A DNA stretch of 64,000 bases from Staphylococcus phage LY01. The first letter of the stretch is position 1. The number at the start of each line of letters is the position of its first letter. The notes under the pieces are model-generated. The model had not been told where the DNA came from. It searched no databases and saw only the letters and a list, made by a program, of their open reading frames with translations. A program made the translations under genes and the position numbers. Below are positions 6,542 to 44,724 of this stretch, one piece after another. The stretch lies in sequence record OR836606.1; one strand, given 5' to 3'.

Positions 6542-6988
6542 ATGTTAAATAAAATTAGAGAAATTAAAAATAGTAGAAAATTAGAGAAACAAAGAAAATT
6601 TCAAGAAGAATTAAAAGAAAAAGAAAGAATTGAAAGATCTCTAAAAGAGCAAGAAGAAAGACGTATAGCTGAAATAAAAGCTAGAGAAAAAGAAACAAGA
6701 GCTTTCTTAGAAAAAGAAGGTCTAATTAAATCTTATTTTGATAGATCTGTAAATGTAGACTACCAAGAAGCCAAACAATATCTTTTAAGAAACGGATTTA
6801 ATTGGTCTGACTTAAAAAGAATGAATAATTATAAGATATTTTTAGAAGCAAATTCATTAGTTGAATATAAGGCTAGGAAAGAAAATGTAAAAATAGAAAC
6901 TATAAAAGATGTTATTAGAGAGAAAAAATTATTAGAAGATCAAATAAAAGCAAAAATACACAACGATTATTTTGGAAGTTTTAGATAA
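6542..6988 (+). CDS. hypothetical charged coiled-coil (K/E/R-rich) protein
   Basis: ORF with an upstream AAAAAGGATGG RBS-like sequence. Confidence 0.4.
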   Translation: MLNKIREIKNSRKLEKQRKFQEELKEKERIERSLKEQEERRIAEIKAREKETRAFLEKEGLIKSYFDRSVNVDYQEAKQYLLRNGFNWSDLKRMNNYKIFLEANSLVEYKARKENVKIETIKDVIREKKLLEDQIKAKIHNDYFGSFR

Positions 6989-7016
6989 AAAAAAAAATAA
7001 AAAAGGGTGATTTAAT

Positions 7017-7514
7017 ATGTACAAAAGAATAACTGCAAAAGAAAAAGAAGAATTATATGGAAATTCAAATCGTTTTATTGATGAAAAATTTAAGATTGAT
7101 GTTTTTATAGAACTAAACAAAATGTTAAAAATGGGAATTGAAAATTGTAACTTATCTTTTAATAAATTGGCGGATACAGAACTAAATAATACTGGTAGAG
7201 AATTAGAATATTTAAATATTGAAGATATAAAAACGAAAACTAAGAAAGCTGTAGGTTTTACTGGAAAATTATTTGCAATAGATCAATTTGACAACCTTTA
7301 TTATACAGCAGGTAATACAGAATTTTATAAATTTGATTTAAATTTAACAAAATTCAGTAGAAATAAATTAGAAAAGAAAATTAAAAAGATGAAAATAGAA
7401 AATAGTCATTTACTTGATAATGGTTATATTAGAAATATTAAATATTCATTTGTAATTTACAATAAAAAAGGTGAGCCTGAATTTGATAGAAATTATTTTG
7501 AAAATAATTATTGA
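7017..7514 (+). CDS. hypothetical protein
   Basis: ORF preceded by AAAAGGGTGA; followed by hairpin GAGAAGTTAAGAAATTAACTTCTC. Confidence 0.4.
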   Translation: MYKRITAKEKEELYGNSNRFIDEKFKIDVFIELNKMLKMGIENCNLSFNKLADTELNNTGRELEYLNIEDIKTKTKKAVGFTGKLFAIDQFDNLYYTAGNTEFYKFDLNLTKFSRNKLEKKIKKMKIENSHLLDNGYIRNIKYSFVIYNKKGEPEFDRNYFENNY

Positions 7515-8072
7515 TTGAGGAAAATTAGTCTTATAATATTCATCGATAAGGGGGAATAAATCCCTCTTATTTTTTTTGTAAATAATTTTTAAATATATAT
7601 TATAAAAGTGAGAAGTTAAGAAATTAACTTCTCATTAATATACTATATTCTACTAAGATATATAAATATGCCGATTCATTTTTAGATCCCCTATACTAAA
7701 ATGAATGGAAGTATAAAATAACAAAATGTGGACAGAGTGAGTTAAACAATAAAAAGATTACCAAATGACATTAGGTCAACAATCAAAAAAGTCATATCTA
7801 TTGTATTTAAGGTGGTTAGACCGTTCACACATATTTATGTCATATATTAAATAGTAGCAATATAAATGGGGAGAGATTCAAAAATTGAATAAAGAAGATT
7901 ATTTGGAAAGAAAAATTAAAGATTTGGAAAATAGAATAAAAGAAATAGATGATAAAGGACATTTTTATGGAGTAGATAACTTTATAAATGATCATATACT
8001 ATCTAATTATAAATAAAGAATTACTTCTCGAATATAATAGATATTCAAAAATAACTCACTCATACAAAATTT

Positions 8073-10969: not shown

Positions 10970-11821
10970 ATGTTACAAAATCAATCATTCGAAACTACTA
11001 TTTTAGAAGAGCAATTGTCTACTTCTGAAAATGAACTTATGGTATTGGAAGAGTTCAATGCTTTAAATGAAGCGGTAGAAACACAAGAAAAAGATGGAAA
11101 AAGTCTTGGTGTTAAAGCTAAAGAATTTTTCATTAAAGTTATTAAGGCTATTAAAGAAGCTCTTAAAAAATTTATGAATTTCTTTGTTGATGCTTTCAAT
11201 AAATTATTCTCTCGTTTCAATAAAATTGAAGAATACATTAAACAATCAAAATTAGAAGGCACTGTAGATAAAGAAAAACAAGAAGAAGCATTTGTATTAT
11301 TAGCTAAGAAAGTTAACGTAAAAGCTTTCAACCCTGGTAATGCTAATATTGAAAAATCTGAACAAGAAATTAATCATTTACAATCTTTGCTTGGTTCAGA
11401 GAAGAGCGCTTCAAATTCTATTTATGATGCTAGAATTTTAAAAGATAAAGCTTCAGTGGAAAGCGCTATGAAAGATTCTCGTGTAAATATGAATGTTATT
11501 AAAAGCGCTGCTAAAAGTATTCAACAAGGTGCTAAATCTGTAGAAGCTAGTGCAAAAGAAGGTATCCAAGCTTCTGGTAAAGATAATAAAGAATTAATTA
11601 AACAAAAACAAGCAGAAACTAAACTTAAAAATAAAGGTGTAGCTGTTGCTCGTAGATTTGCTTCATTGGCTATTAGTAATAACAATGAAGTATTAGTTAA
11701 ATCTTATAAAGTAGCTAAAGCTATTTCTTCTCAAAATAAAGCTTCACAAAAAGCTGGTAACAAAGCTGTAAAAGCTCAAAATAAAGATGCTGACAAAAAA
11801 GCTAAAGCTATGAATGCTTAA
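10970..11821 (+). CDS. hypothetical K/A-rich coiled-coil protein; paralogous N-terminal region with the 11914..12648 gene
   Basis: Shared block KEFFIKVIKAIKEALKKFMNFF / KDFFQTIKEFFLNILSLIKNGLVKFMKFF. Confidence 0.45.
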   Translation: MLQNQSFETTILEEQLSTSENELMVLEEFNALNEAVETQEKDGKSLGVKAKEFFIKVIKAIKEALKKFMNFFVDAFNKLFSRFNKIEEYIKQSKLEGTVDKEKQEEAFVLLAKKVNVKAFNPGNANIEKSEQEINHLQSLLGSEKSASNSIYDARILKDKASVESAMKDSRVNMNVIKSAAKSIQQGAKSVEASAKEGIQASGKDNKELIKQKQAETKLKNKGVAVARRFASLAISNNNEVLVKSYKVAKAISSQNKASQKAGNKAVKAQNKDADKKAKAMNA

Positions 11822-18053: not shown

Positions 18054-19805
18054 TTATTGTGGAATAATAACTGAATTAGTTAAGAATTGATTGCTTAGTG
18101 AAATCAATCCTATAATACTAATAGTTGTTTCTAATATTTTGATATCTGTTTCTACTGAGTTAATGATATCTGTATTATTATCATCTTCATATTCATTATT
18201 TTTAATATTCAATATAGCATCTTTATCTATACAAGTTTGAGTAATTGATTCAATTTCTCCCGGACTAAATCTATTAAAATTTTCTAATACTTTATGGTAA
18301 ACTTCCCTTGAAGATACATCAATTAAATCTAATGTTAAGTTATCTAAAGTACTTAAAACTTCTCTATTAATATTTTTAATAACTTTATTTACTGATAAGT
18401 TTCCTCCAGATACATAACCATATTCTAACGCAGATTTAGAAGCATGTACTGAATCTTCTACTAGATATAATCTAGAAGTTTTTTCTGCTTGAGAAGAACC
18501 ACCAACGTATAATTTAGCAATAGCATTATTTAAAGAATTTGCTCTTTTTTGTAAATCAGTAATAGATGTAATGGCTTGATCTGAATTCATATCTTTATAA
18601 TAAGTTATTTCATTATTAATTTCTGAAATTCTATCTTTAAGTTTTTGAGTACCGTTACCATAACCATTGATAATTTGCGTTTTAAAATTATCAATAATAA
18701 TTCTTTCAGCTCTACCGATCATATTTTCTTTAAATAATAGCCATTCTGGATTAGTTTCAGGAAGTTCTACAATAGACTCAATTTCTTTATAAAAATCTTC
18801 TTTTTCCATAGTTTTATCAATAATAGATCCACCTGTATAAATAGCTAAATCTTCTAATTTTTCTGGGTCATGATAATGAGAGCCAATAGATAATTCAAAG
18901 TCAGTTTCAACTGCTTTTAATGAACCATTGTTTCTATTAGCATATAAATTATTTTTAATATAGTCTTTAAACTCTTTAGAAAAAGATGGAGCAAAGAAAA
19001 TTAATCCTTGTCCTGAGAAAGGTTTAATTTTAGCAATAATATTTGATGTCCATTCAATATCTTCTTCAGTTAGTTTATCATTAACAACAACTACATAAGG
19101 TTTACTAAAATCAACTGAATGATCATCTTTATTATTAATTAATTTATTGTCCAATAATGCATGTGGGGTTTCAATACCTCTAGTTAAAGTATAATGATCT
19201 TCTTCATTATCAGAAACTTCAGGGAATATAAAACCTTTACTGCCAATTTTAGAGAAAATTTCGTAAACCATTTCCCCTAATTTTTCATCATTATTATTAG
19301 ATACTGTAGCGATATTTTTTAATTTATGGAAATTATTTTGATCGATTTTAGTGGATTTTGAAATCAACTCTTTAGAAATTAATTCTTTCATGTTATTTAA
19401 TGAATCTGAAATTTCTTTACGTGAATATCCGCCTAAATCGTCTTTTTCTTTTAGTCTTCTATTAATTTCTTTAAACATGGCTTGTGAGTTAATTACTGAT
19501 GAAGTTGATCCATCTCCCACTGATTTAACTAATGATAAAGATACTTCTTTAATGAAATTCAAAATAGCTGTAGCGATTGTATCTTGAAATCTAATATTTT
19601 TTAGAATATTATAACCATCTTTAGTTACATATCTACTAATACCATCATCAAAAATAGTTGTAGAACCAAAATATCCTAATGATTTCATTAAAGTATTTGA
19701 AATAGTATCAATAGTTAACTCAGCAATATCTTTATACGAATCTTCATCTACAATATTTGAAACTAATTTTTTCTTTTCTTTATTCTTATCTAACATTCCC
19801 TTCAA
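18054..19805 (-). CDS. GroEL/Cpn60-like chaperonin
   Basis: The N-terminal region aligns by eye to the GroEL equatorial domain. The nucleotide-binding signature appears as VGDGSTSSVINSQAMF (cf. GroEL AGDGTTTATVLAQA). Size is ~580 aa. Confidence 0.55.
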   Translation of the reverse strand: MKGMLDKNKEKKKLVSNIVDEDSYKDIAELTIDTISNTLMKSLGYFGSTTIFDDGISRYVTKDGYNILKNIRFQDTIATAILNFIKEVSLSLVKSVGDGSTSSVINSQAMFKEINRRLKEKDDLGGYSRKEISDSLNNMKELISKELISKSTKIDQNNFHKLKNIATVSNNNDEKLGEMVYEIFSKIGSKGFIFPEVSDNEEDHYTLTRGIETPHALLDNKLINNKDDHSVDFSKPYVVVVNDKLTEEDIEWTSNIIAKIKPFSGQGLIFFAPSFSKEFKDYIKNNLYANRNNGSLKAVETDFELSIGSHYHDPEKLEDLAIYTGGSIIDKTMEKEDFYKEIESIVELPETNPEWLLFKENMIGRAERIIIDNFKTQIINGYGNGTQKLKDRISEINNEITYYKDMNSDQAITSITDLQKRANSLNNAIAKLYVGGSSQAEKTSRLYLVEDSVHASKSALEYGYVSGGNLSVNKVIKNINREVLSTLDNLTLDLIDVSSREVYHKVLENFNRFSPGEIESITQTCIDKDAILNIKNNEYEDDNNTDIINSVETDIKILETTISIIGLISLSNQFLTNSVIIPQ

Positions 19806-32129: not shown

Positions 32130-32450
32130 CTAAACGTAAATTAGATATAAGCTTTAATTTTACAACTGACGATATGCCTTAACGACAGTTGAATCTAACA
32201 GCATAAGTATGGCATATGACTCATACTGTGTTTCATTTACACTAAGTCTGCAGCCTTAGTGTGAGGATGATTAATCCTATCAGTTTGTTCTTGGTGAGAG
32301 TTGAACTCACAAAATATCGATTTGTTCGATATGCTTTAACCAGTAGCAACAAGAACATAATAAATAAAGTGGATCATTTTTCTATGATCCACTTAAATAA
32401 AGCGCAACATTATACGGGTCGGAGGCTCATGTAAATCACTTGACGTAGAG
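32130..32450. ncRNA. candidate structured non-coding RNA / cis element (GC-elevated island with at least five stable hairpins); function unknown
   Basis: No ORF. Local GC is clearly above the surrounding ~25%. Hairpins: ATATGCC..GGCATAT, CACTAAG-TCTGCAGC-CTTAGTG, GTGAG..CTCAC, ATATCGA-TTTGT-TCGATAT, GTGGATCAT-TTTTCT-ATGATCCAC. Flanked by terminators at 31902-32 and 32567-94. Confidence 0.25.
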
Positions 32451-35286: not shown

Positions 35287-35420
35287 CTAATTTAATTTTT
35301 CTGTATTAGTACAATACAGATAAGACTATATCTTCTAATGTAATATATTTAGTCGTTGAACAACTTGTATTAAGTTGATGCTGATTAATCTAATAAGATA
35401 CTTCCAGCAATTAATATTAT
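35287..35420 (-). ncRNA. compact group I intron, copy G (short-5' subfamily), in the beta-prime-like gene; boundaries approximate
   Basis: On the minus strand: P AATTGCTGGAAG (35401-35412), Q TTAATCAGCATCA (35377-35389), R TGTTCAACGACTAAATA (35347-35363), S GATATAGTCT (35323-35332), P9 hairpin CTGTATTGTACTAATACAG (35301-35319). Confidence 0.65.
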
Positions 35421-35456
35421 TTAATGTGAGCATCAAGTTTACCCACCTTCTTGAGT
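35421..35456 (-). CDS. putative micro-exon of the beta-prime-like gene between introns F and G (frame and limits uncertain)
   Basis: In one frame it encodes (Y)SRRWVNLMLTLNNI. This matches the universally conserved beta-prime G(Y)LTRRLVDV segment and the paralog's GYLNRKITLLTSDL. No start codon in that frame. Confidence 0.4.
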
Positions 35457-35633
35457 CATTTATGTTAACTATATTAAAATAATACAGATCAGACTATATC
35501 AAAAACTCTATATGAGCTTAATTATATTTAGTCGTTGAACACTATTTTTAGTGATGCTGATTAACTTAATAAAGGATCTCAGCAATTAATAATTTTTCGT
35601 ATATTATATTACTATAATAAAGGGCATTCATAT
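35457..35633 (-). ncRNA. compact group I intron, copy F (long-5' subfamily with P1 hairpin GGTAT..ATGCC), in the beta-prime-like gene
   Basis: P TTAATTGCTGAGATCC, Q TTAATCAGCATCA, R TGTTCAACGACTAAATA, S GATATAGTCTGATC, P9 CTGTATTATTTTAATATAG, terminal ..TTAACATAAATG (omega-G at 35457). Confidence 0.7.
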
Positions 35634-36431
35634 ACCTAGTGCACGTCCAGCTGAACCAGCAGTCATGACATCTCCAAACATATAAAGTTCATTAGGATCA
35701 ATTCCTTCAGCTAGTGAGCTTTTAGCAATTCTAATTTTACTTGGATCAGCAAAGTTTTTATTGGCTCCACGAATCAATGCAGTTAATTTATAGTTATTAC
35801 CGAATGAACCACGTGAACCACTATCATAAATATCTAAATCGGCTAAACCTTTTAATTCTTCTTTACTTAATTTAATTAATTCTTTTTCAATAGCAGATAT
35901 TGCGTTTAATTCTTCTCCAGAAGTATTCAACTCTTTTTCATATTTAACTAATAATTCTTCTTTCTTTTGTTTAACCTTATCAGTAGCAGTCATCATTGTA
36001 GTAGTTAAACTAGAATTAATAAAACTAGCTATAGAGAATCCTAACCATTGTAATTTATCAATGTAATCTGACATTTCTTGTGTAGTAATAATATCATTGA
36101 GTAATAAGTTTGATAAATCAGATTGAAGCTTACCAATTCCAGAACCACCCATATCGTGATTCATATATCCTATAATTGGCCCAATTTTATTATCTAAAAT
36201 AAATTTATTAAATATATATCTACCTACAGTAGTCTTTTCATCTTTTTTATTATAAACTAAATCTTTTTTTAATGTAAATTTATCTGATGGATTATACATT
36301 GGTTCTGTATTCTGTCTAAAGGCAAATAATTCTTTTAACTTGTCTAATGTAATATCATCTTTACCAACACTTAATAATGTAGATACTTCTTTTTCGTTAA
36401 GTGTTTTATTCTCATAATTCATATTAGCCAA
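35634..36431 (-). CDS. RNAP beta-prime-like subunit, C-terminal gene segment (first exon of interrupted gene; own ATG start)
   Basis: EGIDPNELYMFGDVMTAGSAGRALG aligns to beta-prime [25 protein letters not shown] (trigger-loop region). Minus-strand ORF 35628..36431 from the track. Confidence 0.65.
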
Positions 36432-36970
36432 TTTATTTTCACTTCTTTCATTATTTTATTCATATTTAGATGTTATTGAGCATTTTATAATTTTTATATA
36501 ATTAAACAATGTATATGAAGTTAATAGTTATTTTTATATTAAATATTTAATTGTATTAATTTAATAAAGATAATATAAATAGTCAATGATTTATATTAAA
36601 TTAATATAAATTACAGAAATAAATTATGTAAAAACTATAAATTTTTATAATTATGTGATAAAAAATTTGAAAATGCCCGGAATATTATAATTATATTATA
36701 ATAAAATTATAATAATAAATATATTATTCTTATAATATATTTATATAAATTAAAATATTATGAGGGGATAGTACACATTTTTATTTCATAAAAATGTATT
36801 AAGAAAATAACGAACGAAGTGAGTTATTTTATTTATATAAATCCAATTAAAATACATAACAATAATAATCAAAACTATTGTATATAGGAAATTTATTGAA
36901 TAATATTATAAAATAAAAATAATATAAATATATTAATCAATAAAATTAAATACGGAAAGGAATGGCATAA
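36432..36970. promoter_or_regulatory. ~540-bp extremely AT-rich divergent intergenic region between the two intron-containing RNAP genes (probable divergent promoters)
   Basis: No ORF. Long runs of ATAATATAAATA-type repeats. Flanked by the starts of the minus-strand beta-prime-like and plus-strand beta-like genes. Confidence 0.3.
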
Positions 36971-38560
36971 TTGAAATATCTTAATAGATTAAAAAATCTT
37001 AAATTCTATTCAATATCTGGATATAAAATTAAAGCTATTGATGAAGAAATCGAAGATAAGAAAAAAGATCAGTTAGTTATTTATAAAGGTTTTAAAGAAA
37101 ATTCATTTACTGATTTTTTAAATAGTGGATTATTATATCATCAGAATTTTAAGAATATCTATATTCCGAGATTGTATAGAACTAGAAATAGAAGAACTAG
37201 ATTATTAACAAATATAACAGATTATCAAAAAGAGATTAAATCTAAATCTTACAAACAGTATAGAGTTGAAAGAAATGAGAAATTATTTAAAGGTAGAAAC
37301 TATATTGTTGATTCAACTAAATTTATTGATTTAGAAGATAAATCATTAATAACTAGAAATTTTAATACAGTATTGGATTCAATTAAATCAACTTTTAATT
37401 CTTTAAATAATGCAGAAGATTACAATAATTTATTATATGTAATTAATGTTGATGGGTATAATAAGTCTTCTCAAGAAGCAATTAGACCTAATACAAAAGA
37501 TTTCATGTCAAGCTTATTCATGATGATTAAGAATCAAGAGGAATTACCTCATGGTGAAAATCAAAATATTAATTTATTATTTGTCTCATTAGATAATGGA
37601 ATAATGTTTAAATTTGATTATAAAGATTATAATAAACTTAATATGAGACTTAGACAAAGATTAAGAAGAATCATTGATACTAATACACAAGCATTAGATA
37701 CTGATGAAATTAGTAAAGTTGAAGATGATGACAATACTGAAGCTGTAGATGGAGTAATTAAAAAGAAAGCATTTGATAATGTAGGAACAATTGATCCTAT
37801 CGAAGCTCAGAACGATGAAGCTGAATATGAAAATGATGAACAGTTAGAAAAAATATCTAATAAAATAGATTCTACAATAAGTTATATTAGATCATTAGAC
37901 AATACTGAAATGGATGTTGATGATGAATATAATATAGCTATGATAATTGAAAAAGAATTAAATAATAATAAAGATTTAATTGATATTGATACTGAAACAT
38001 TATATTCGGATGTATTGGATAAAAATGATTCATTTAAATCAATTAAGAGAAATATTAAAAATAAATCTAGTATTGGCGATGAAGCACTTAAAAATACTAA
38101 AAAGATATTAGCTTTATCCAAGAAACAAGATGAATACCTTAATGATTTAGAGGATTTTAGCTTTTCTGAAGATAAATTAATCGATAGAGAAATTAATGAA
38201 AATATTAATAATATTAATGAAGAGACTATTAATAATATTGCTTCTAATGATTTTGATGTTTCTTATATGCAAAAAACATTTAATAAAGACTTTATTGATA
38301 TAATGAAAAGCTTTAATGACAATGAAGATATTCCGGTATTTATTAATAAAATGAATATTGAAGATAATTCAGATAGTCAATCATTAAAAAATACAGTTAA
38401 AGTTCAATTTAGAAGTCCAGACGGTTTAACTCATAATGTTAAATTTGATGTTCCTAAAGTTATTGACGGTAAGTACATGAAGCTTAACGGTGGGAAAAAG
38501 ATATTAACTAAACAGTTAATGATGTGGCCAATCGTTAAATATAAACCGGATTGTTCATAA
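36971..38560 (+). CDS. RNAP beta-like subunit, exon 1 (N-terminal part; TTG start per ORF track; true exon end probably at a U within 38551-38557)
   Basis: C-terminal KYMKLNGGKKILTKQLMMWPIVKYKPD aligns to RpoB [25 protein letters not shown]. Confidence 0.6.
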   Translation: MKYLNRLKNLKFYSISGYKIKAIDEEIEDKKKDQLVIYKGFKENSFTDFLNSGLLYHQNFKNIYIPRLYRTRNRRTRLLTNITDYQKEIKSKSYKQYRVERNEKLFKGRNYIVDSTKFIDLEDKSLITRNFNTVLDSIKSTFNSLNNAEDYNNLLYVINVDGYNKSSQEAIRPNTKDFMSSLFMMIKNQEELPHGENQNINLLFVSLDNGIMFKFDYKDYNKLNMRLRQRLRRIIDTNTQALDTDEISKVEDDDNTEAVDGVIKKKAFDNVGTIDPIEAQNDEAEYENDEQLEKISNKIDSTISYIRSLDNTEMDVDDEYNIAMIIEKELNNNKDLIDIDTETLYSDVLDKNDSFKSIKRNIKNKSSIGDEALKNTKKILALSKKQDEYLNDLEDFSFSEDKLIDREINENINNINEETINNIASNDFDVSYMQKTFNKDFIDIMKSFNDNEDIPVFINKMNIEDNSDSQSLKNTVKVQFRSPDGLTHNVKFDVPKVIDGKYMKLNGGKKILTKQLMMWPIVKYKPDCS

Positions 38561-38589
38561 CAGTCCACTTTTATAGCAATATGAAAGTA

Positions 38590-38730
38590 AAAAGAATATT
38601 AATTGCTGAAACGGTTTTATTAAATTAATCAGCATCAATTATTATTAATTGTTCAACGACTAAATATATTCACTCTTATTGAGAGTATGATATAGTCTGT
38701 GCTCTAAATTGATAATTTAGAGATTGTATA
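38590..38730 (+). ncRNA. group I intron core, copy E (5' ribozyme moiety of an IStron-like element) in the beta-like gene
   Basis: P TTAATTGCTGAAACGG (38599-), Q TTAATCAGCATCA (38625-37), R TGTTCAACGACTAAATA (38651-67), S GATATAGTCT (38689-98), P9-like TGTATAAAATACAG (38715-28). Confidence 0.7.
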
Positions 38731-38803
38731 AAATACAGATAAAAAATTCATATCAGAATTTCTCTTAACATATTTTTATAATATGATTAGGAGGTGAAAT
38801 TAA

Positions 38804-40006
38804 ATGATAAACAAAAACGGAAAATTAGTTAAATCTTTCAAAACTAGAATATACCCAAATCAAGATCAAATAAATTATTTCAATAAATGTTTTGGTGTAA
38901 GAAGAAAAATATGGAATATGGCTTTAGAAGACTATCAAAATAAAGATGATGACGCTCAATTTAGCGGATTTGATTATCAGAAAAAATTAAATAATGAAAT
39001 TTATGAATCTGGTAAATATCCCTATCTTTATGAAGTTAATAGCATGGTTAGACAAGAAGCTTTAAAAGACTTAGATGAATCTTTTAAAATATATAGAAAT
39101 GAACAAAAGAAAGCTAGAAAGTCTAAAGATGCAATTGACACTGAAAAATTTAAACCCAAGTTTAAAAAGAAAAAACATTCTAATGAGTCATTTAGATTTA
39201 TGGTTAAAGATAAGAAATATTTACCTATTAGATTTTTATCTAAGAAATGGATAAAAATTTCCGTAATGAAAGGAATTAAACCTTTTATAATCAAATCTAA
39301 AGAATCAATGAAGTTTATTAATTCTAATAACCATAGATTTCTCACTTACACTATAAGCAGAAAGAATGAAAAATATTATATTTCTGTAACTTATGAGATA
39401 AACAATTATAAGAAACAGAGATTGAATAATGATTCAATTGGTATTGATATGGGTATGAAAACACCATTAGTATGTGTAGATTCAAATGGTCAAACATTTG
39501 AATTTAAAATCCCACATAACTTATGGAAACAAGAAAGAAAAACTGAGAAATTGCAAGCAAAACTATCAAGTAAGAAATATTATTCAAAATCATATTACAA
39601 AACTTTAAAACAATTAAGAAAATCTTATAATAGAGAGTGTAATATATTAGAAGATTATAGAGATAAAATCACTAATTGGTTAGTTAAAAACTATAAAGTG
39701 ATTAATATTGAACCATATAGTCATAAAGCTTCTAATAATTTAAGAAATGCTCGTAGATCTAATAGAAGATTTGGCAAATATGATTTCCTAGAAAAATTAA
39801 AGTATAAGATTTTACAATATGATAATGAATTGAATATAATTACTAAAAAGAAAACTACACAAACATGCTCATCATGCGGTTATGTAAGAACTAACGATGA
39901 GAAACTTGTCATTGGCGATGATATTCATGATTGTCCTAAATGTAATGTAGTTCTTGATAGAGATTTAAATGCGGCTAAAAATATTCTAGATTTAAAATAT
40001 GTTTAA
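38804..40006 (+). CDS. tnpB: TnpB (OMEGA RNA-guided RuvC-like nuclease / IS605 OrfB)
   Basis: N-terminal KTRIYPNQDQINYFNKCFGVRRKIWNMALE. RuvC-I IGIDMGMKT, RuvC-II ..VINIEPY.., zinc finger CSSCGYV..CPKCN, RuvC-III VLDRDLNAAKNIL. 400 aa. Confidence 0.85.
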   Translation: MINKNGKLVKSFKTRIYPNQDQINYFNKCFGVRRKIWNMALEDYQNKDDDAQFSGFDYQKKLNNEIYESGKYPYLYEVNSMVRQEALKDLDESFKIYRNEQKKARKSKDAIDTEKFKPKFKKKKHSNESFRFMVKDKKYLPIRFLSKKWIKISVMKGIKPFIIKSKESMKFINSNNHRFLTYTISRKNEKYYISVTYEINNYKKQRLNNDSIGIDMGMKTPLVCVDSNGQTFEFKIPHNLWKQERKTEKLQAKLSSKKYYSKSYYKTLKQLRKSYNRECNILEDYRDKITNWLVKNYKVINIEPYSHKASNNLRNARRSNRRFGKYDFLEKLKYKILQYDNELNIITKKKTTQTCSSCGYVRTNDEKLVIGDDIHDCPKCNVVLDRDLNAAKNILDLKYV

Positions 40007-40180
40007 TTAATTTCACAAAATAAAAGATATGAGAGTCGCCTGCGGTCAGCGGGAGACGATAAACGGGTGATAAGCTAATGTCTGATTAGCTTTACAAGGA
40101 GTACAGAGGTACCTCTATACGTTAGTCACTGAGCCAAGTGTATTTTATACAAGATCTTGCCTTTAGATTTAATTATTTAA
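40007..40180 (+). ncRNA. putative omega-RNA (reRNA) scaffold at the right end of the TnpB element
   Basis: GC content jumps (GAGAGTCGCCTGCGGTCAGCGGGAGACGATAAACGGGTGATAAGC..) immediately after the tnpB stop. Multiple stems present. The position is typical of IS605-family omega-RNAs. Confidence 0.45.
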
Positions 40181-41571
40181 AATCAAGATTTAACAAGACA
40201 GACAGTATGGATTACAACTAACTATAATAAATTCATTATAGAAAAATTTGGTTATAAAGAAAATGCTGAAACTGAATGGATCAAGAAAGTTATTGAAGAT
40301 GACCAAGTTATAGATTATATTGAAAATAAATCTAACTTATCTGTTAAAAAAGGTAATGCTTCTTTAATCAATAATAAATATGTAACTTCAGTTATTTATA
40401 ATAGCTTATCTAGAAATATATTAAATTTCCAAGATGACACTAATGTACTTGAATTTAATCAAAGAAGTTTATTAGCGATGATTTCTGATAGTGCTAGTTT
40501 ATCTAAAATTGATTATGATCAAGATAAATATTTCCCTATTGGTTATAATATTAATAAATCTAAATTAATATTAGCAGATAAGACAGAATCTGTTATGTAT
40601 GAATGTAGTAAGACTAATATTAAGTCAATGGAAATGAATATATTTGATTACCTTATTGATAAATTAGACAATGAAGTTGACTTTGGTGTTATTGATAAGA
40701 AATTCAGTAAGAATATTCAGGCTAATAAGACTATGGCATTTTCACGTGTTAAAATTACTAATAAATTAGTACCTACAATTTTATTATTAGGTTTCTATAA
40801 AGGTTTAACTAGTATTCTTGATCTTTATGAAGTTGATTATAAATTTACTACTGAGAATGAAAGAATTAGTATTCATGATAAAAAGAATAAAATTAAATTC
40901 CAAGATGGTTATTTAATATACTCTACTGATAAATTAAGATATGATTTATTAATGTCTGGATTAACTGTATTGCCTACATCACAATACAATTTCAGTGATT
41001 TTGAAACTGAAACACCTTACTTAGAATATTTCAATGATAAATTCTACAGTCGTAATGTTGGTAAAGGTATCAAAAATACTATGGATTTAGCAATGGATCC
41101 TATTACTAAAGAAGTATTAAGGGATTTAAAACTTCCTGATAATATGGTTGAATTATTACTATTAGCTAATACGATGTTAGAAGATGTATCAGCTAGAGAT
41201 CATAATGATATGGGAATTTATCGTGTACGTGGCCCAGAACAAATTAATGCATTATTATATAAAATGATGGCAAATGCTTATAAAGAATATTCAGATTCTT
41301 ATAATAATAAAAATCCTAAGAATATTTCAGTTAAACAAGATCAATTAATTAAAACTATTATGGAACAACCTACAGTGGATGAAGTATCTGATTTAAACCC
41401 TAACTTAGAAATAGATAAGATGACTTCTGTTACATTTAAAGGACCTGCTGGACGTAACTCTGAACAATCATATGAACCTGATATTCGTTCTTACGATGAA
41501 AGTATGCAAGGTATATTAGGAATAAGTACACCTGACAGTAATAAGGTAAATTACTTGCCCTTAATTACAGT
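40181..41571 (+). CDS. RNAP beta-like subunit, exon 2 (true 5' splice acceptor somewhere after 40181; ORF track shows only 40478..41578)
   Basis: FSRVKITNKLVPTILLLGFYKGLTSILDLY aligns to RpoB FVRIDRRRKLPATIILRAL..EQILDLF. FKGPAGRN..EPDIRSYDESMQGILGISTPDSNKVNYLPLITV aligns to [41 protein letters not shown]. Confidence 0.6.
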
Positions 41572-41727
41572 AATGTAATTCAATGAAAATTTATTAATTG
41601 CTAAAAATCTTTATTAAGATGATCAGCATCACTAAAAATAGTGTTCAACGACTAAATATAAATTCACTTATTATAAGTGTAAGATATAGTCTAATCTGTA
41701 TTAGATTATTATAGAATAATACAAATG
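41572..41727 (+). ncRNA. compact group I intron, copy A (short-5' subfamily); boundaries +/- a few nt
   Basis: P TTAATTGCTAAAAATC, Q AGATGATCAGCATCA, R TGTTCAACGACTAAATA, P8 CACTTATTATAAGTG, S GATATAGTCTAATC, P9 CTGTATTAGATTATTATAGAATAATACA, terminal AAATG. Confidence 0.7.
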
Positions 41728-41878
41728 AGGTATTGTCAGACAACTTTCATATGATACACAAATTAAATCTACTCGTGGTTATACTGATGGTAGTAAAAAA
41801 GATGTAAGTGATACAGCTTTATACACACCATTAGAATTATTAAATCCATATACTAGTAGACATGCGGATATACGAAAT
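41728..41878 (+). CDS. RNAP beta-like subunit, exon 3 (~50 codons)
   Basis: ..YTPLELLNPYTSRHADIRN aligns to RpoB ..SLIPFLEHDDANRA. The proposed junction gives LPLITV|GIVRQLSYDTQIK. Confidence 0.5.
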
Positions 41879-42034
41879 GAGGTAAGTTCGCAATAAAATT
41901 ATTTAATTGCTGGAAAGCTTTATTAAGTTAATCAGCATCAGTTAAAGACTGTTCAACGACTAAATAATAATTACCATTTATATGGTGAAGATATAGTCTA
42001 ATCTATATTAATTTAATATAGAATAATAAAAATG
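41879..42034 (+). ncRNA. compact group I intron, copy B (short-5' subfamily)
   Basis: P TTAATTGCTGGAAAGC, Q TTAATCAGCATCA, R TGTTCAACGACTAAATA, P8 ACCATTTATATGGT, S GATATAGTCTAATC, P9 CTATATTAATTTAATATAG, terminal AAAAATG. Same 156-nt length as copy A under independent boundary guesses. Confidence 0.7.
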
Positions 42035-42058
42035 TCACCTCGTATAGGAATGACTGGT
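42035..42058 (+). CDS. RNAP beta-like subunit, 8-codon micro-exon 4 (SPRIGMTG)
   Basis: RIGMTG aligns to RpoB RALMGA immediately before the QRQAVP motif. Confidence 0.45.
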
Positions 42059-42242
42059 ATTAAAATGAATGCCCTTTATTATAGTAATATAATATACGAA
42101 AAATATTTAATTGCTAAGAATCTTTAATTAAAGAAATTAGCATCAAATTAATACAATTTGTTCAACGACTAAATAATATTATACTTATTTAAGTATTTGA
42201 TATAGTCTGATCTGTATTAAATTAATACAGTTAACATAAATG
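42059..42242 (+). ncRNA. compact group I intron, copy C (long-5' subfamily with P1 hairpin GGTATT-AAAATG-AATGCC)
   Basis: P TTAATTGCTAAGAATC, Q AATTAGCATCA (compensatory TGCTAA/TTAGCA versus TGCTGG/ATCAGCA in other copies), R TGTTCAACGACTAAATA, P8 ATACTTATTTAAGTAT, S GATATAGTCTGATC, P9 CTGTATTAAATTAATACAG, omega-G at 42242. Confidence 0.75.
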
Positions 42243-42644
42243 ACTCAAGCTAAGCATTTAATTGCTACTAAAACAAATGACCGTCCATTAGTTGGTTCCG
42301 GTGTAGATAAATCTTTAGCCTACCAAATTTCAGACACATTTGCTTTTAAAGCTAAAGAAGATGGAAAAGTAACTTCTATTAATGAGAAAACAGGATTAAT
42401 GATTGTTGAATATATTAATGGAGATAAAGATGTAATTGATATATCTGAAAAACTTGCTAAAAACTCTAATGGCGGATTTTATCAAAATAATAAACTTACA
42501 CCGCAATTTGAAGTAGGTAAGAAATTTAATAAAGGACAAATATTAGCTAAAAATGATAATTACTTTGCAGGTTCTGGTAGTAATAATGATATTCAATTCA
42601 CTGCTGGTAAATTATCTAAAGTTGCAGTAGCTAGCTCATATGGT
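42243..42644 (+). CDS. RNAP beta-like subunit, exon 5 (134 codons, ends on GGU)
   Basis: TQAKHLIATKTNDRPLVGSGVDKSLAYQISDTFAFKAKEDGKV aligns to RpoB [39 protein letters not shown]. ..KLSKVAVASSYG aligns to ..MRVAFMPWNGYN. Confidence 0.65.
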
Positions 42645-42832
42645 ATTATAAATGCCTTTCATTATAGTAATATAATGTATAAAAAATATTTAATTGCTGG
42701 AAAGTCTTTATTAAGACAATCAGCATCATTAATTTATAATGTTCAACGACTAAATAATATTATACTTAATTAATATGTATTTGATATAGTCTAATCTGTA
42801 TTGATTAACTCTTAATGCAGTTAATATAAATG
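42645..42832 (+). ncRNA. compact group I intron, copy D (long-5' subfamily, P1 hairpin GGTATT-ATAA-ATGCC)
   Basis: P TTAATTGCTGGAAAGT, Q ACAATCAGCATCA, R TGTTCAACGACTAAATA, S GATATAGTCTAATC, P9 CTGTATTGATTAACTCTTAATGCAG, terminal TTAATATAAATG (omega-G 42832). Confidence 0.75.
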
Positions 42833-43591
42833 ACTTATGAGGACAGTTCTATTATTTCTAATAGTATGTCTGAAGCTATGTCAACTAAAGTTACTATGAA
42901 GAAAACAGTAAATTTAGCTTCCAATACGAATATTCAATATATTGTAAAAGAAGGTCAAAATGTACGTACAGGAGACCCATTAATGATATTTGAGAATTCA
43001 TTTGATGATGAAGGTATCGGTTCTTTATTAGATAAAATTGGATCTGAATTTGAACAAGAAATCCAAGATATTTCTAATAGAGCTGTTAGATCTAAATATA
43101 CAGGCGTAATTAAGAAAGTAAATATCTATTATAATGATGATATTGAAAATATGTCTCCTACATTAGCTAAATTGGTTAATAGTTATATTAATAAATCTAA
43201 GAATAAATATAAAGAATATAAAAATGCAGTTAAAGGTAACAAATCTACATTACCTGGATTAGATGTAGATATTCCTGCAGTTGAAAAAATCAATAATGAA
43301 AAAATTAAAGGTGAAAAAGTTGATGGTGTTCTTATTGAAATCTTTACAGAATATGAAGATGATATGAGTATCGGTGATAAGATTAGTTTCTATGGGGCGT
43401 GTAAAACGGTCATTGCTGACGTTACTCCACCTGACGAATCCCCTTATGCAGAATATAGACCTGATGAAGAAATTGAAGCTATATTCTCTCCATTAAGTAT
43501 CGTGTCTCGTATGACTACAGATATATATCTCATGTTGTTTACCAATAAAGCACTCATAGAGCTTAAGAGAAAAGTTAAAGATATGCTTTAA
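42833..43591 (+). CDS. RNAP beta-like subunit, exon 6 (in frame with exon 5 when joined GGU|ACU)
   Basis: TYEDSSIISNS aligns to RpoB NFEDSILVSER. The join gives ..SSYG|TYEDSSII. Confidence 0.65.
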   Translation, partial: TYEDSSIISNSMSEAMSTKVTMKKTVNLASNTNIQYIVKEGQNVRTGDPLMIFENSFDDEGIGSLLDKIGSEFEQEIQDISNRAVRSKYTGVIKKVNIYYNDDIENMSPTLAKLVNSYINKSKNKYKEYKNAVKGNKSTLPGLDVDIPAVEKINNEKIKGEKVDGVLIEIFTEYEDDMSIGDKISFYGACKTVIADVTPPDESPYAEYRPDEEIEAIFSPLSIVSRMTTDIYLMLFTNKALIELKRKVKDML

Positions 43592-43695: not shown

Positions 43696-44115
43696 ATGGA
43701 TTTGAAATCTTTAGAAGAATCTCTAGACAAAGAATTTAATTTAGTTAATGAAGATCCAGAACAAGATTTTTTTAAAAGCATGATAGGGGTTATCATAAAT
43801 CAATATCAAAAAGGGATAGATGGTTTAACAAAACAAGGATATGCTAACTTCCAACCTAGTAAATTTGTTTATGCAGGAACTAATATAAACTTAGAAGTAA
43901 AATGTAAAAACCTAGTTAGTGGAGAAAATACAGAAAGAGATTTTGCTGTAGTTAGAATTAATAGAACTATTGCTTCAGGAGGACAGTATGAAAGCTTAAT
44001 GAATAGAAATAAATCATCTGTATTCCCTGAACTTAAAAAGATGAAACCTTCAGATGAAGCTAAAAAAGCTGCTGAAAGTAGAATTAAGAAGGATAAAATA
44101 AAATTAGAACTTTAA
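43696..44115 (+). CDS. hypothetical protein
   Basis: 139-aa ORF with RBS GAGGAAAATATAATG. Confidence 0.4.
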   Translation: MDLKSLEESLDKEFNLVNEDPEQDFFKSMIGVIINQYQKGIDGLTKQGYANFQPSKFVYAGTNINLEVKCKNLVSGENTERDFAVVRINRTIASGGQYESLMNRNKSSVFPELKKMKPSDEAKKAAESRIKKDKIKLEL

Positions 44116-44190
44116 AAAGATATCGAGGATATTAGAAATACTAAAGATAAACAAGAGAAAAAAAGAAAGATTAAAGAATATAAAGAAAAA

Positions 44191-44724
44191 TTGAAAAATA
44201 GTAAGAAAAAATTAAATGAAGAATTAAAAAGAGATATTGACACTGATAAAGAAGAACCTATTTGTGAAGAATGTGGATCTAAAATGTCTCCAAATGAATC
44301 AGGTCAATTAGTATGTGAAGAATGTGGTAACACTTCTGATGTTGCAGTTCAAGAAGGAGTTGTTGAACCTGATAATCTTGAAGCAGATTTTGCTAAAGCT
44401 TGTATGAATTTTAAAATAAAAGCTAAAAGTAATGGCATTAGAATTGATTCAGGTAATGCTGTAGTTGTAGCCAAACGTACTGGTGGTAAAAATGCTGCTT
44501 TGGAGGTACCTATTAAATATAAAGGTAAAGATAAAATTAGAAGAATACCGATTGGTATAGTTGCAGATCGTTTCAAAGAAGCACAAAAATGGGTTCAAAG
44601 TAATGGTAATAAATTTGTATCCATCTTTAAGAAAGCTCCTGATAAGAAACCTGAAATTGATGAAGATGATAAAGTTATTGAGAACTTAGAAAAAATATTA
44701 GATGAAGAATTTAATTTAAACTAA
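44191..44724 (+). CDS. zinc-ribbon protein (CEECGS..CEECGN), paralog of the 44768..45277 gene
   Basis: Shared C-terminal blocks KEAQKWVQSNGNKFVSIFKKAP / EKAKKWAQANEKKYIALFKKLP and a terminal ..LE(K/E)(I/A)LD(E/R)EF.L. Confidence 0.45.
   Translation: MKNSKKKLNEELKRDIDTDKEEPICEECGSKMSPNESGQLVCEECGNTSDVAVQEGVVEPDNLEADFAKACMNFKIKAKSNGIRIDSGNAVVVAKRTGGKNAALEVPIKYKGKDKIRRIPIGIVADRFKEAQKWVQSNGNKFVSIFKKAPDKKPEIDEDDKVIENLEKILDEEFNLN

Follow-up and report, generated by a model that had tools for sequence, protein, structure and literature searches.

The way in which group I introns colonize new sites has long been debated, and reverse splicing is widely proposed as the route. Here, we analyzed 64,000 nucleotides (nt) of Staphylococcus phage LY01 (OR836606.1; the whole stretch is called the window below), which hold seven copies of one group I intron family, all inside the beta-prime and beta genes of the virion RNA polymerase. 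We favor, with moderate confidence, a reading in which the family carries a shared P1/P10 guide, the copies IB (beta-prime) and I4 (beta) probably record a sequence-directed jump that may have used reverse splicing, and spread between phages takes place at the DNA level.

Among described systems, the phage introns of subgroup IA2 (T4 td and nrdB, Twort orf142, SPO1/AR9) have the same P3–P9 core with crossing P3 and P7, carry U.G at the 5' splice site, end in G and are likewise inserted in conserved parts of essential genes, jumbo-phage RNA polymerase included. Unlike these introns of ~250–1000 nt, the LY01 family measures 142–206 nt, lacks an open reading frame (ORF) and the helices P7.1/P7.2, includes five copies without P2 and P8, numbers seven copies here, spread over two genes, and 32 in phage AH12, and scores far under the Rfam threshold (15 vs 50 bits). 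Gut 'Jug' jumbo phages carry ~18.5 short ORF-less group I introns of ~206 nt per genome in essential genes, and their splicing is seen in metatranscriptomes (PMC12880540). They resemble the LY01 family in having many short ORF-less introns per genome that split essential genes; host and lineage differ. The passages of that paper considered here do not address how guides relate to targets or whether heterologous sites share a guide.

For group I introns of nuclear ribosomal DNA (rDNA), spread by reverse splicing has been argued without direct proof (Bhattacharya et al. 2005, PMC1299323). Our argument follows the logic developed there (Bhattacharya et al. 2005; Roman and Woodson; Birgisdottir and Johansen), in which related introns occupy heterologous sites whose flanks match the guide. 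Unlike the rDNA introns, those of LY01 lie in protein-coding genes of a virulent phage, their guide is a contiguous P10 plus P1, and intron-less alleles show that the target pre-exists; as in rDNA, there is no direct evidence. IStrons (CdISt1, BcISt1, CboIStron; PMC4227781, PMC10690162) join an IA2-like ribozyme at the 5' end to ORF B and a structured 3' RNA, an architecture found here in copy I1 only. Published IStrons have 5' but not 3' target specificity, with a target motif that doubles as P1 (PMC4227781, PMC10690162), and the 2014 survey holds no Staphylococcus example (PMC4227781). Short phage group I introns, IStrons and the reverse-splicing proposal are already known; unusual here are the very small size, the forms without P2 and P8, the contiguous guide and an IStron-like element in a phage polymerase gene.

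Exon Context and Guide Pairing at Three Junctions

Intron boundaries were set by spliced dynamic-programming alignment to the intron-less genes of phages S6, DC4 and SA1, followed by hand curation; some AH12 boundaries were taken from protein alignment and the U/G rules. At I5, a diverged flank displaced the dynamic-programming placement, and the boundary was fixed by hand from the protein alignment. The three introns with related exon contexts and their guides are as follows (^ marks a splice junction):

35457..35633, minus strand: intron IB, 177 nt, in beta-prime (mid), splitting ALG^TQE; placed by spliced alignment, allele table and nhmmer; junction GGT^ATATGAATGCC...CATAAATG^ACTCAAG
35623..35633, minus strand: IB guide segment AUAUGAAUGCC, with GCC at 35625->35623 and UGAAU at 35630->35626
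42059..42242, plus strand: intron I4, 184 nt; junction GGT^ATTAAAATGAATGCC...CATAAATG^ACTCAAGC
42066-42070 and 42071-42073, plus strand: I4 guide, UGAAU and GCC, respectively
42645..42832, plus strand: intron I5, 188 nt; junction GGT^ATTATAAATGCC...ATAAATG^ACTTATGA
42646-42653 and 42654-42656, plus strand: I5 guide, UUAUAAAU and GCC, respectively

A sequence-only reading of this DNA, in which I4, I5, IB and IA were named C, D, F and G, had described the 5' exons of C, D and F as ending in GGTAT(T/A) and their 3' exons as starting with ACTCAAG, ACTTATG and ACTCAAG. The strings are located as claimed: GGTATT at 42056-42061 and 42642-42647, GGTATA at 35636->35631 (minus strand), and the 3' exons ACTCAAGC, ACTTATGA and ACTCAAGA from 42243, 42833 and 35456 (minus strand), respectively. 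The exon end moves, however, since spliced alignment to S6, DC4 and SA1 places it after GGT; the AT(T/A) that comes next belongs to the introns, is homologous among them and extends P1. The amino-acid contexts quoted earlier were read-through artefacts, and the junctions of IB, I4 and I5 all fall between Gly and Thr in phase 0 (ALG^TQE, MTG^TQA and SYG^TYE, respectively).

Guides were read by locating the base that pairs exon position -1 at each curated junction and then proceeding outwards. Each intron starts with a short antisense guide, whose 3' part pairs with the last 3–9 exon bases (P1, with U.G at the cut) and whose bases just 5' of this segment pair with the start of the 3' exon (P10). 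In IB, I4 and I5, exon GGU pairs with GCC, and intron bases 1–2 or 1–3 lengthen the hairpin (3 bp plus 2 intron bp in IB). The intron ATGCC that the sequence-only reading saw as closing this hairpin lies 7–11 nt into each intron and does fold back on GGUAU. For P10, UGAAU of IB and I4 faces the 3' exon A.UCA (A.UCA/UGA.U; 5/8 in register for IB), and UUAUAAAU of I5 faces ACUUAUGA with 7/8 pairs, so that guide and 3' exon change together between I4/IB and I5.

The three introns have in common ~45 nt of 5' module, almost the same in each and made up of the guide and a P2 hairpin with a GUAA loop. Because this module would work only at GGU^A.U(C/U)A, the exon contexts of the three introns resemble one another, and it is well supported by the pairings that the shared context consists of the exon bases predicted to pair with the intron's own guide. 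The earlier attribution of the repeated context to P1/P10 pairing is retained for GGU/GCC and for a significant P10, without the AT of GGTAT. Over 34 distinct sites, the P10 segment pairs with its own 3' exon at 4.9/8 positions (longest run 3.8) vs 3.3/8 (run 2.0) for the exons of other sites, and 0/20000 permutations gave so high a total. Some copies have 6–10 bp of P10, up to 10/10 in the AH12 intron at 11175.

Further occurrences of the module were sought in two collections. A scan of IMG/VR with ATGCCNTTNATTATAGTAAT gave five matches, all chance occurrences in coding DNA and none an intron, and a blast search of the 49-nt module against phages returned known sites only. Two AH12 introns, 118841-119022 (locus L137) and 11545-11725 (locus L135), share a 5' module with each other and lie at the same G^AD position of the metal-binding motif AD(F/Y)DGD in two paralogous RNA polymerase beta-prime genes.

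The Target in Intron-Less Phages

Intron-less alleles, whose retrieval from relatives the sequence-only reading had proposed, were found for all three sites. At the beta-prime site of IB, seven intron-less phages carry ACTCAAG (7/7), preceded by GGT in five and GGA in two, and ACTCAAG is invariant in 10/10 alleles, intron present or not. At the I4 site, the intron-less alleles read GGTACCCAAG (S6), GGAACTCAGG (DC4, Madawaska, MarsHill), GGTACTCAGG (PALS_2) and exactly GGTACTCAAG (SA1, PB50), and the three intron-bearing phages read GGT^ACTCAAG (3/3). At the I5 site, GGCACGTACGA or GGTACGTATGA is found without the intron and GGT^ACTTATGA in four phages with it. The IB/I4 target can also be given as GGUACUCAAG, with the intron-less variants GGUACCCAAG, GGAACUCAGG and GGCACGUACG. 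Intron-bearing alleles always have GGT^ACT, and intron-less ones vary at synonymous positions (GGA, GGC, ACC, ACG, CAG). Most of the target is thus already there without the intron, and at the I4 and I5 sites the guide-pairing synonymous positions are fixed only with it.

SA1 and PB50 carry the exact 10-mer GGTACTCAAG uninterrupted at both the IB and the I4 site, and because it is present in intron-less genomes at both genes, the target predates insertion. The sequence-only reading had regarded ancestral codons in intron-less homologs as speaking against it; the target codons do pre-exist there, but guide-directed selection predicts exactly this. The contiguous 10-mer GGTACTCAAG spans two non-homologous junctions; in the 267-kb S6 genome, both strands taken together, it occurs once, at the IB site. 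The pattern GGTAC(T/C)CAAG occurs twice, exactly at the IB and I4 sites, and in none of 30 dinucleotide shuffles; by a rough estimate, a genome would contain the exact 10-mer ~0.1 times. The similarity between the two sites ends at -3 and +7.

Related introns at non-homologous sites with flanks that match the guide are therefore apparent, on pairing and alignment, for IB and I4 and, more loosely, for I5. Because beta-prime and beta, which are unrelated, have the same guide at the same pre-existing 10-mer, and the genome holds no further copy of it, one of the IB and I4 sites was probably colonized from the other by a sequence-directed event, and it is reasonable to suggest that the guide chose the target. 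The likeliest of several routes, to which the evidence points weakly, would be that the intron RNA, once excised, reverse-spliced into the other mRNA and was then copied back to DNA.

Movement between Phages and the Homing Alternative

Movement between phages could be followed at I5, where the exon context differs in type from the rest of the gene:

42630..42839, plus strand: co-converted exon tract around I5, with AH12/Machias-type informative sites

Informative sites of the window beta gene are 634 S6-type vs 68 AH12-type. Ten consecutive AH12/Machias-type sites span -15 to +6 of the I5 junction, a tract of ~21 nt that includes swapped serine codons (AGC TCA instead of TCA AGC). From this co-conversion tract it follows that I5 entered the LY01 genome by DNA recombination at the cognate site, exon context included. 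Between phages, introns move as DNA by same-site recombination and take a few exon bases along, as I5 shows.

A gain of this break-repair type at a cognate site, and the many homing endonucleases that these phages encode, bring in ectopic homing, in which a tolerant endonuclease acting in trans would cut similar sites in both genes. "Intron-free" S6 itself carries one full-size td-like group I intron with a LAGLIDADG gene (6897-8071, locus L143), located in the prohead protease gene after TATGGT. It has the same GCC-plus-P2 5' module, a point in favor of ectopic homing, and a td-like insert between P3' and P8. IB, I4 and I5 are ORF-less, however; they share 10 bp between unrelated flanks where typical recognition sites measure 14–40 bp, and repair from a non-homologous gene would find no flanking homology, all of which makes ectopic homing improbable. 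Since this full-size LAGLIDADG relative has the same kind of 5' module, the mini-introns look like stripped-down derivatives. An AH12 mini-intron with a different guide lies 4 nt downstream of the S6 prohead-protease site.

Observations against a Sequence-Directed Jump

Several observations weigh against a guide-directed jump between the IB and I4 sites, and each is set here beside the alternative on which it bears. The pairing itself is short: P1 with the exon has just 3 bp in IB, I4 and I5, P10 reaches only 4–5/8 in IB and I4, a C.A mismatch stands at +2 in all three, and the P1 hairpin is no more stable than shuffles. Many weaker guide matches stand unoccupied, among them GGTA.TCA (29 occurrences in S6), gyrB GGTACTCATG (also written GGUACUCAUG) and window position 18653 GGTACTCAA. 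Across the family, the 5' exons of 34 sites end in GGT (16), GAT (9) or AGT (4), and no excess 3'-flank similarity was detected within the 5' classes (p about 0.2). In a Hamming test of positions -6..+8 over 561 site pairs, IB/I4 (10/14) is not an outlier. The only outlier is an AH12 pair with 13/14 identities (p about 0.01; null expectation 0.012 pairs), which is a second case of the IB/I4 kind: GCCGAT^TATGATGG lies in an RNA polymerase beta-prime gene, and GCCGAT^GATGATGG in a gene resembling gyrB. Only one clear heterologous pair, and this second one in AH12, are alike on the 3' side.

These figures bear on another alternative, in which conserved Gly-Thr-Gln codons coincide by chance and had no part in selecting the sites, and for which an unexceptional 10/14, the invariance of ACTCAAG in ten beta-prime alleles and the frequency of GGTACT (63 occurrences in S6) can be cited. 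Coincidence would leave aside that the matching sites also hold the two most similar guides, that the 10-mer is rare in the genome and missing from the shuffles, and that synonymous positions at the I4 and I5 sites are fixed only in intron-bearing alleles; we consider it very improbable.

The copies are also mosaics. IB and I4 of the window share the 5'-module variant ATATACGAAAAAT and a 3' module, whereas IB and I4 of Machias/AH12 share ATAATAGAAAAAT; the 3' modules of I4 are unrelated between the window and the AH12 lineage, and window I2 and IB have an identical P6. Recombination among copies is frequent, because the copies are mosaics. Paralogues within a genome thus share 5'-module variants that are missing from same-site copies in other phages, and since DNA recombination between copies is active, it could have homogenized the guides after independent insertions. 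In such a scheme, the introns would have inserted independently and later exchanged 5' modules by gene conversion, only exon-compatible exchanges having survived; similar contexts would then allow similar guides without having been selected by them. The shared variants, the identical P6 and the unrelated 3' modules of I4 all agree with exchange of this kind. It leaves unexplained why two independent insertions fell on the genome's only two GGTAC(T/C)CAAG sites: a junction-spanning identity of 10 nt among 561 pairs is expected ~0.1 times by a rough estimate, and much less often for pairs with the same module. We regard independent insertion followed by gene conversion as rather unlikely.

A stronger version of the preferred reading would have all three sites colonized by P1/P10-guided reverse splicing into mRNA, then reverse transcription and recombination. 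The same guide at one 10-mer in two unrelated genes, the prior existence and genome-wide uniqueness of that 10-mer, the confinement of the similarity to -3..+7 and the covariation of the I5 guide with its 3' exon speak for it; reviews see the strongest circumstantial indication of such a route in heterologous sites occupied by related introns, and the phage clade encodes a retron-like reverse transcriptase (RT). The RT is found alike in intron-free S6 and intron-rich AH12, and the window holds none, which is a further point against the reading; as a correlate of intron load, RT presence was rejected on the same comparison. I5, moreover, differs in both guide and target, so an extra change is needed, and it came into LY01 by DNA recombination; there is no 3' similarity across the family, and reviews report no direct evidence for the route in any system. 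Colonization by guide-directed reverse splicing, as proposed in the sequence-only reading, accordingly gains from the P1/P10 covariation and the pre-existing target and fails to cover the arrival of I5. For all three sites together, we see it as a tentative possibility.

Fold and Size of the Intron Family

Alignment and folding predict that the seven repeats are small self-splicing group I introns whose core is of the td/Twort type, members of a family that has multiplied among Staphylococcus jumbo phages. In an alignment of 33 introns (window and AH12), P3, P4, P6, P8 and P9 covary, and P7, which crosses P3, is invariant and hence uninformative for covariation. Paired cells amount to 96.2%, vs 80% in shuffled and 25–48% in slid alignments; 0/500 shuffles reach the observed value, and 20 base pairs are changed on both sides. 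The minimum free energy fold of I4 contains P1, P2 (GUAA loop), P4–P6, P7/P8 and P9. The J8/7–P7 sequence GAUAUAGUC and ACGACUA are near-identical to those of T4 td. Helices P7.1/P7.2 of subgroup IA2 were not seen in the alignment, in which the gap from P3' to P8 is only 0–2 nt.

An Rfam search of the whole window at the gathering threshold and at E<=10 gave no group I match. A single-intron search gave two local matches of 15.2 and 9.3 bits, below the RF00028 cut-off of 50, in the correct order P4–P7, then P7'–P9. The U.G wobble at the 5' splice site is present in 7/7 window copies and 32/34 sites, U at -1 together with G at the intron 3' end in 7/7 window copies, and the terminal G in 32/32 extracted introns. 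Two AH12 introns (11545-11725 and 11381-11529, locus L135) are preceded by C instead of U and have a guide A opposite, giving a C.A pair; in one of the two, P1 and P10 are otherwise perfectly in register.

P2 and P8 are both missing in 5/33 copies, namely window IA (35287-35440) and four introns of AH12 (11381-11529, 70600-70753, 154208-154354 and 166082-166225; loci L135, L136 and L138), which measure 144–154 nt and have only ~9 nt from P3' to J8/7. Such a length is unusually small for natural group I introns, if these are self-splicing. The joint loss would fit a contact between a P2 tetraloop and a P8 receptor.

The IStron-Like Copy I1

One copy in the beta gene differs from the ORF-less introns in size and content:

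38552..40201, plus strand: intron I1, 1650 nt, IStron-like; ribozyme core ~38552-38740, then TnpB ORF and conserved 3' RNA; junction GGAT^...ACAAGACAG^ACAGTATGG
38804..40006, plus strand: TnpB (IS200/IS605 ORF B) gene within I1, identified by Pfam domains

I1 is predicted to be an IStron-like element, with the family ribozyme core fused to TnpB and the splice sites at the element ends. Its TnpB matches HTH_OrfB_IS605, OrfB_IS605 and Cas12f1-like_TNB above cut-off, and no second ORF is present. Phage Machias has a TnpB copy of 87% identity, and the whole unit is 86% identical over 1654 nt to a copy in a different Machias gene. The guide follows the exon (GGAU/GUCC here, AGAU/GUCU in Machias), the 5' flanks are CCGGAT^ and TTAGAT^, respectively, the 3' flanks are unrelated, and the element ends in ACAG. 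Comparison of the two copies suggests one compensatory change in a 3' hairpin, and Rfam gives no match. A candidate TnpB target is RGAT followed by ACAGTATGGATTACAA.

Like IStrons, I1 sits after a ...GAT motif that forms part of P1, and the same element is found at unrelated sites in two genomes. Unlike the published examples, it lies in the RNA polymerase gene of a Staphylococcus jumbo phage and has ORF B only; its flank reads RGAT and its end ACAG, where group A IStrons have a TTGAT-like target and a TCAG end. With 1/8, I1 has practically no P10, in contrast to most ORF-less copies.

The presence of I1 makes it necessary to weigh DNA transposition of the IStron/IS200-605 type, in which the family would descend from transposon-introns that insert 3' of a short motif (GGT or GAT), with ORF-less copies moved in trans and P10 acquired later. 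I1 joins the family ribozyme to TnpB within the beta gene, its Machias copy stands elsewhere with a guide changed to match, and GGT, GAT or AGT closes the 5' exon at 29/34 sites, whose 3' sides are not alike, much as in the 5'-specific published IStrons, whose motif doubles as P1. Such transposition does not predict the 7-nt 3' identity of IB and I4 or the 7/8 of the AH12 pair, nor P10 in the ORF-less copies and none in the IStron-like one. The mini-introns end in AAAUG, vs (T/A)CAG in I1 and group A IStrons; AH12 has no TnpB despite 32 introns; and no TnpA was seen, with no dedicated local TnpA search made. We judge this route unlikely for the ORF-less copies. TnpB as a driver of the mini-introns was rejected for AH12 on the same count.

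Remaining Copies, Host Genes and Other Features of the Window

The remaining introns and the short exons between copies are:

35441..35456, minus strand: micro-exon ACTCAAGAAGGTGGGT between IB and IA, 16 nt
35287..35440, minus strand: intron IA, 154 nt, without P2 and P8; 3' exon starts ATCAAG
41548..41727, plus strand: intron I2, 180 nt, GCC-type guide; junction AAGGT^AAATTACTTGCC...CAAATG^AGGTATTG
41870..42034, plus strand: intron I3, 165 nt; junction GCGGAT^...AAAATG^TCACCTCG
42035..42058, plus strand: exon between I3 and I4, 24 nt, ending in GGT of the MTG^TQA junction

The micro-exon serves two introns, its 5' part being the P10 target of IB and its 3' part (GTGGGT) the P1 target of IA. 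The IA guide CUUGAU-GCUCAC pairs with GUGGGU^AUCAAG through 6 bp each of P1 and P10. The sequence-only reading had begun this 3' exon with G and seen in it a hint of the constraint acting at the other sites; that G is the terminal G of the intron, the resemblance is a Gln-Ala-Lys coincidence, and the IA guide fits its own junction. P10 has 6/8 pairs in I2 and 7/8 in I3, where P1 has 7 bp; I3 is also present in Madawaska, AH12 and PB50. AH12 contains micro-exons of 6, 11 and 15 nt. Insertions recur at the 24-nt stretch of beta, a hotspot that holds I3 and I4 here (window 41870-42242); 7 nt upstream of the I4 site, after GGGAT^, PALS_2 and MarsHill have an intron of 1.3 kb that contains a zinc-finger ORF (6148-7447 of L004 and 6229-7530 of L005).

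The window is matched by nine Staphylococcus jumbo phages, and the insertions are the parts left uncovered; the closest relatives, Madawaska, S6, DC4, PALS_2 and MarsHill, show 93–94% identity at a coverage of only 67–77%. The host genes, uninterrupted in S6, DC4 and SA1, are those of the virion RNA polymerase: the mid part of beta-prime on the minus strand and beta on the plus strand. Six copies are ORF-less and measure 154–188 nt, and the seventh is I1. A 16-nt core, GTTCAACGACTAAATA, occurs seven times in the window, from 35.3 to 42.8 kb; a family profile search recovered the same seven copies and no others in the 64 kb, 32 in AH12 and none in S6. The nhmmer core match of IB covers 35491-35596. 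Excision of the seven elements leaves open frames without stops and with lengths exactly as in S6: spliced beta has 1417 aa (97.5% identity to S6) and spliced beta-prime-mid 408 aa (96.3%). Relatives that carry the same introns in these essential genes are viable isolates.

Two further features lie outside the introns. At 32285-32356, where relatives annotate tRNA-Asn or a pseudo-tRNA, Rfam gives a sub-threshold 'Plastid-ycf2' match (36 bits, E 3e-4); ARAGORN found no tRNA anywhere in the window. Downstream of beta, a stretch of ~460 bp (43754-44215), which overlaps a small ORF (43696-44115), aligns to S6 and Madawaska and is missing from DC4, PALS_2 and SA1.

Significance

Intron-split genes in these phages were noted previously, from protein alignments only, and the introns were missed by earlier Rfam-based annotation. 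Because such introns escape Rfam and standard annotation, the genes of these phages are reported as fragments. At least 120 large viral contigs contain the family's 16-nt core motif.

Together, these phages offer a natural test bed for the movement of group I introns: the same guide and 10-mer in two unrelated essential genes, close phages that have or lack each intron, matching sites that stand free, a phage RT and, in the same gene, a transposon-type relative without 3'-exon pairing. On a bolder view, which we put forward as a speculation with a low chance of holding, the mini-introns would be RNA-guided mobile elements, whose first 8–16 nt would act as one unbroken antisense guide (P10 plus P1) to the ligated exon junction and direct reverse splicing into any phage mRNA with a matching sequence, the product being fixed by the orphan RT of the clade and recombination. 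If that were true, the system would be open to direct tests, thanks to intron-free sister phages and free matching sites, and the twin sites in beta-prime and beta would be among the clearest natural traces of group I reverse-splicing transposition into protein-coding genes.

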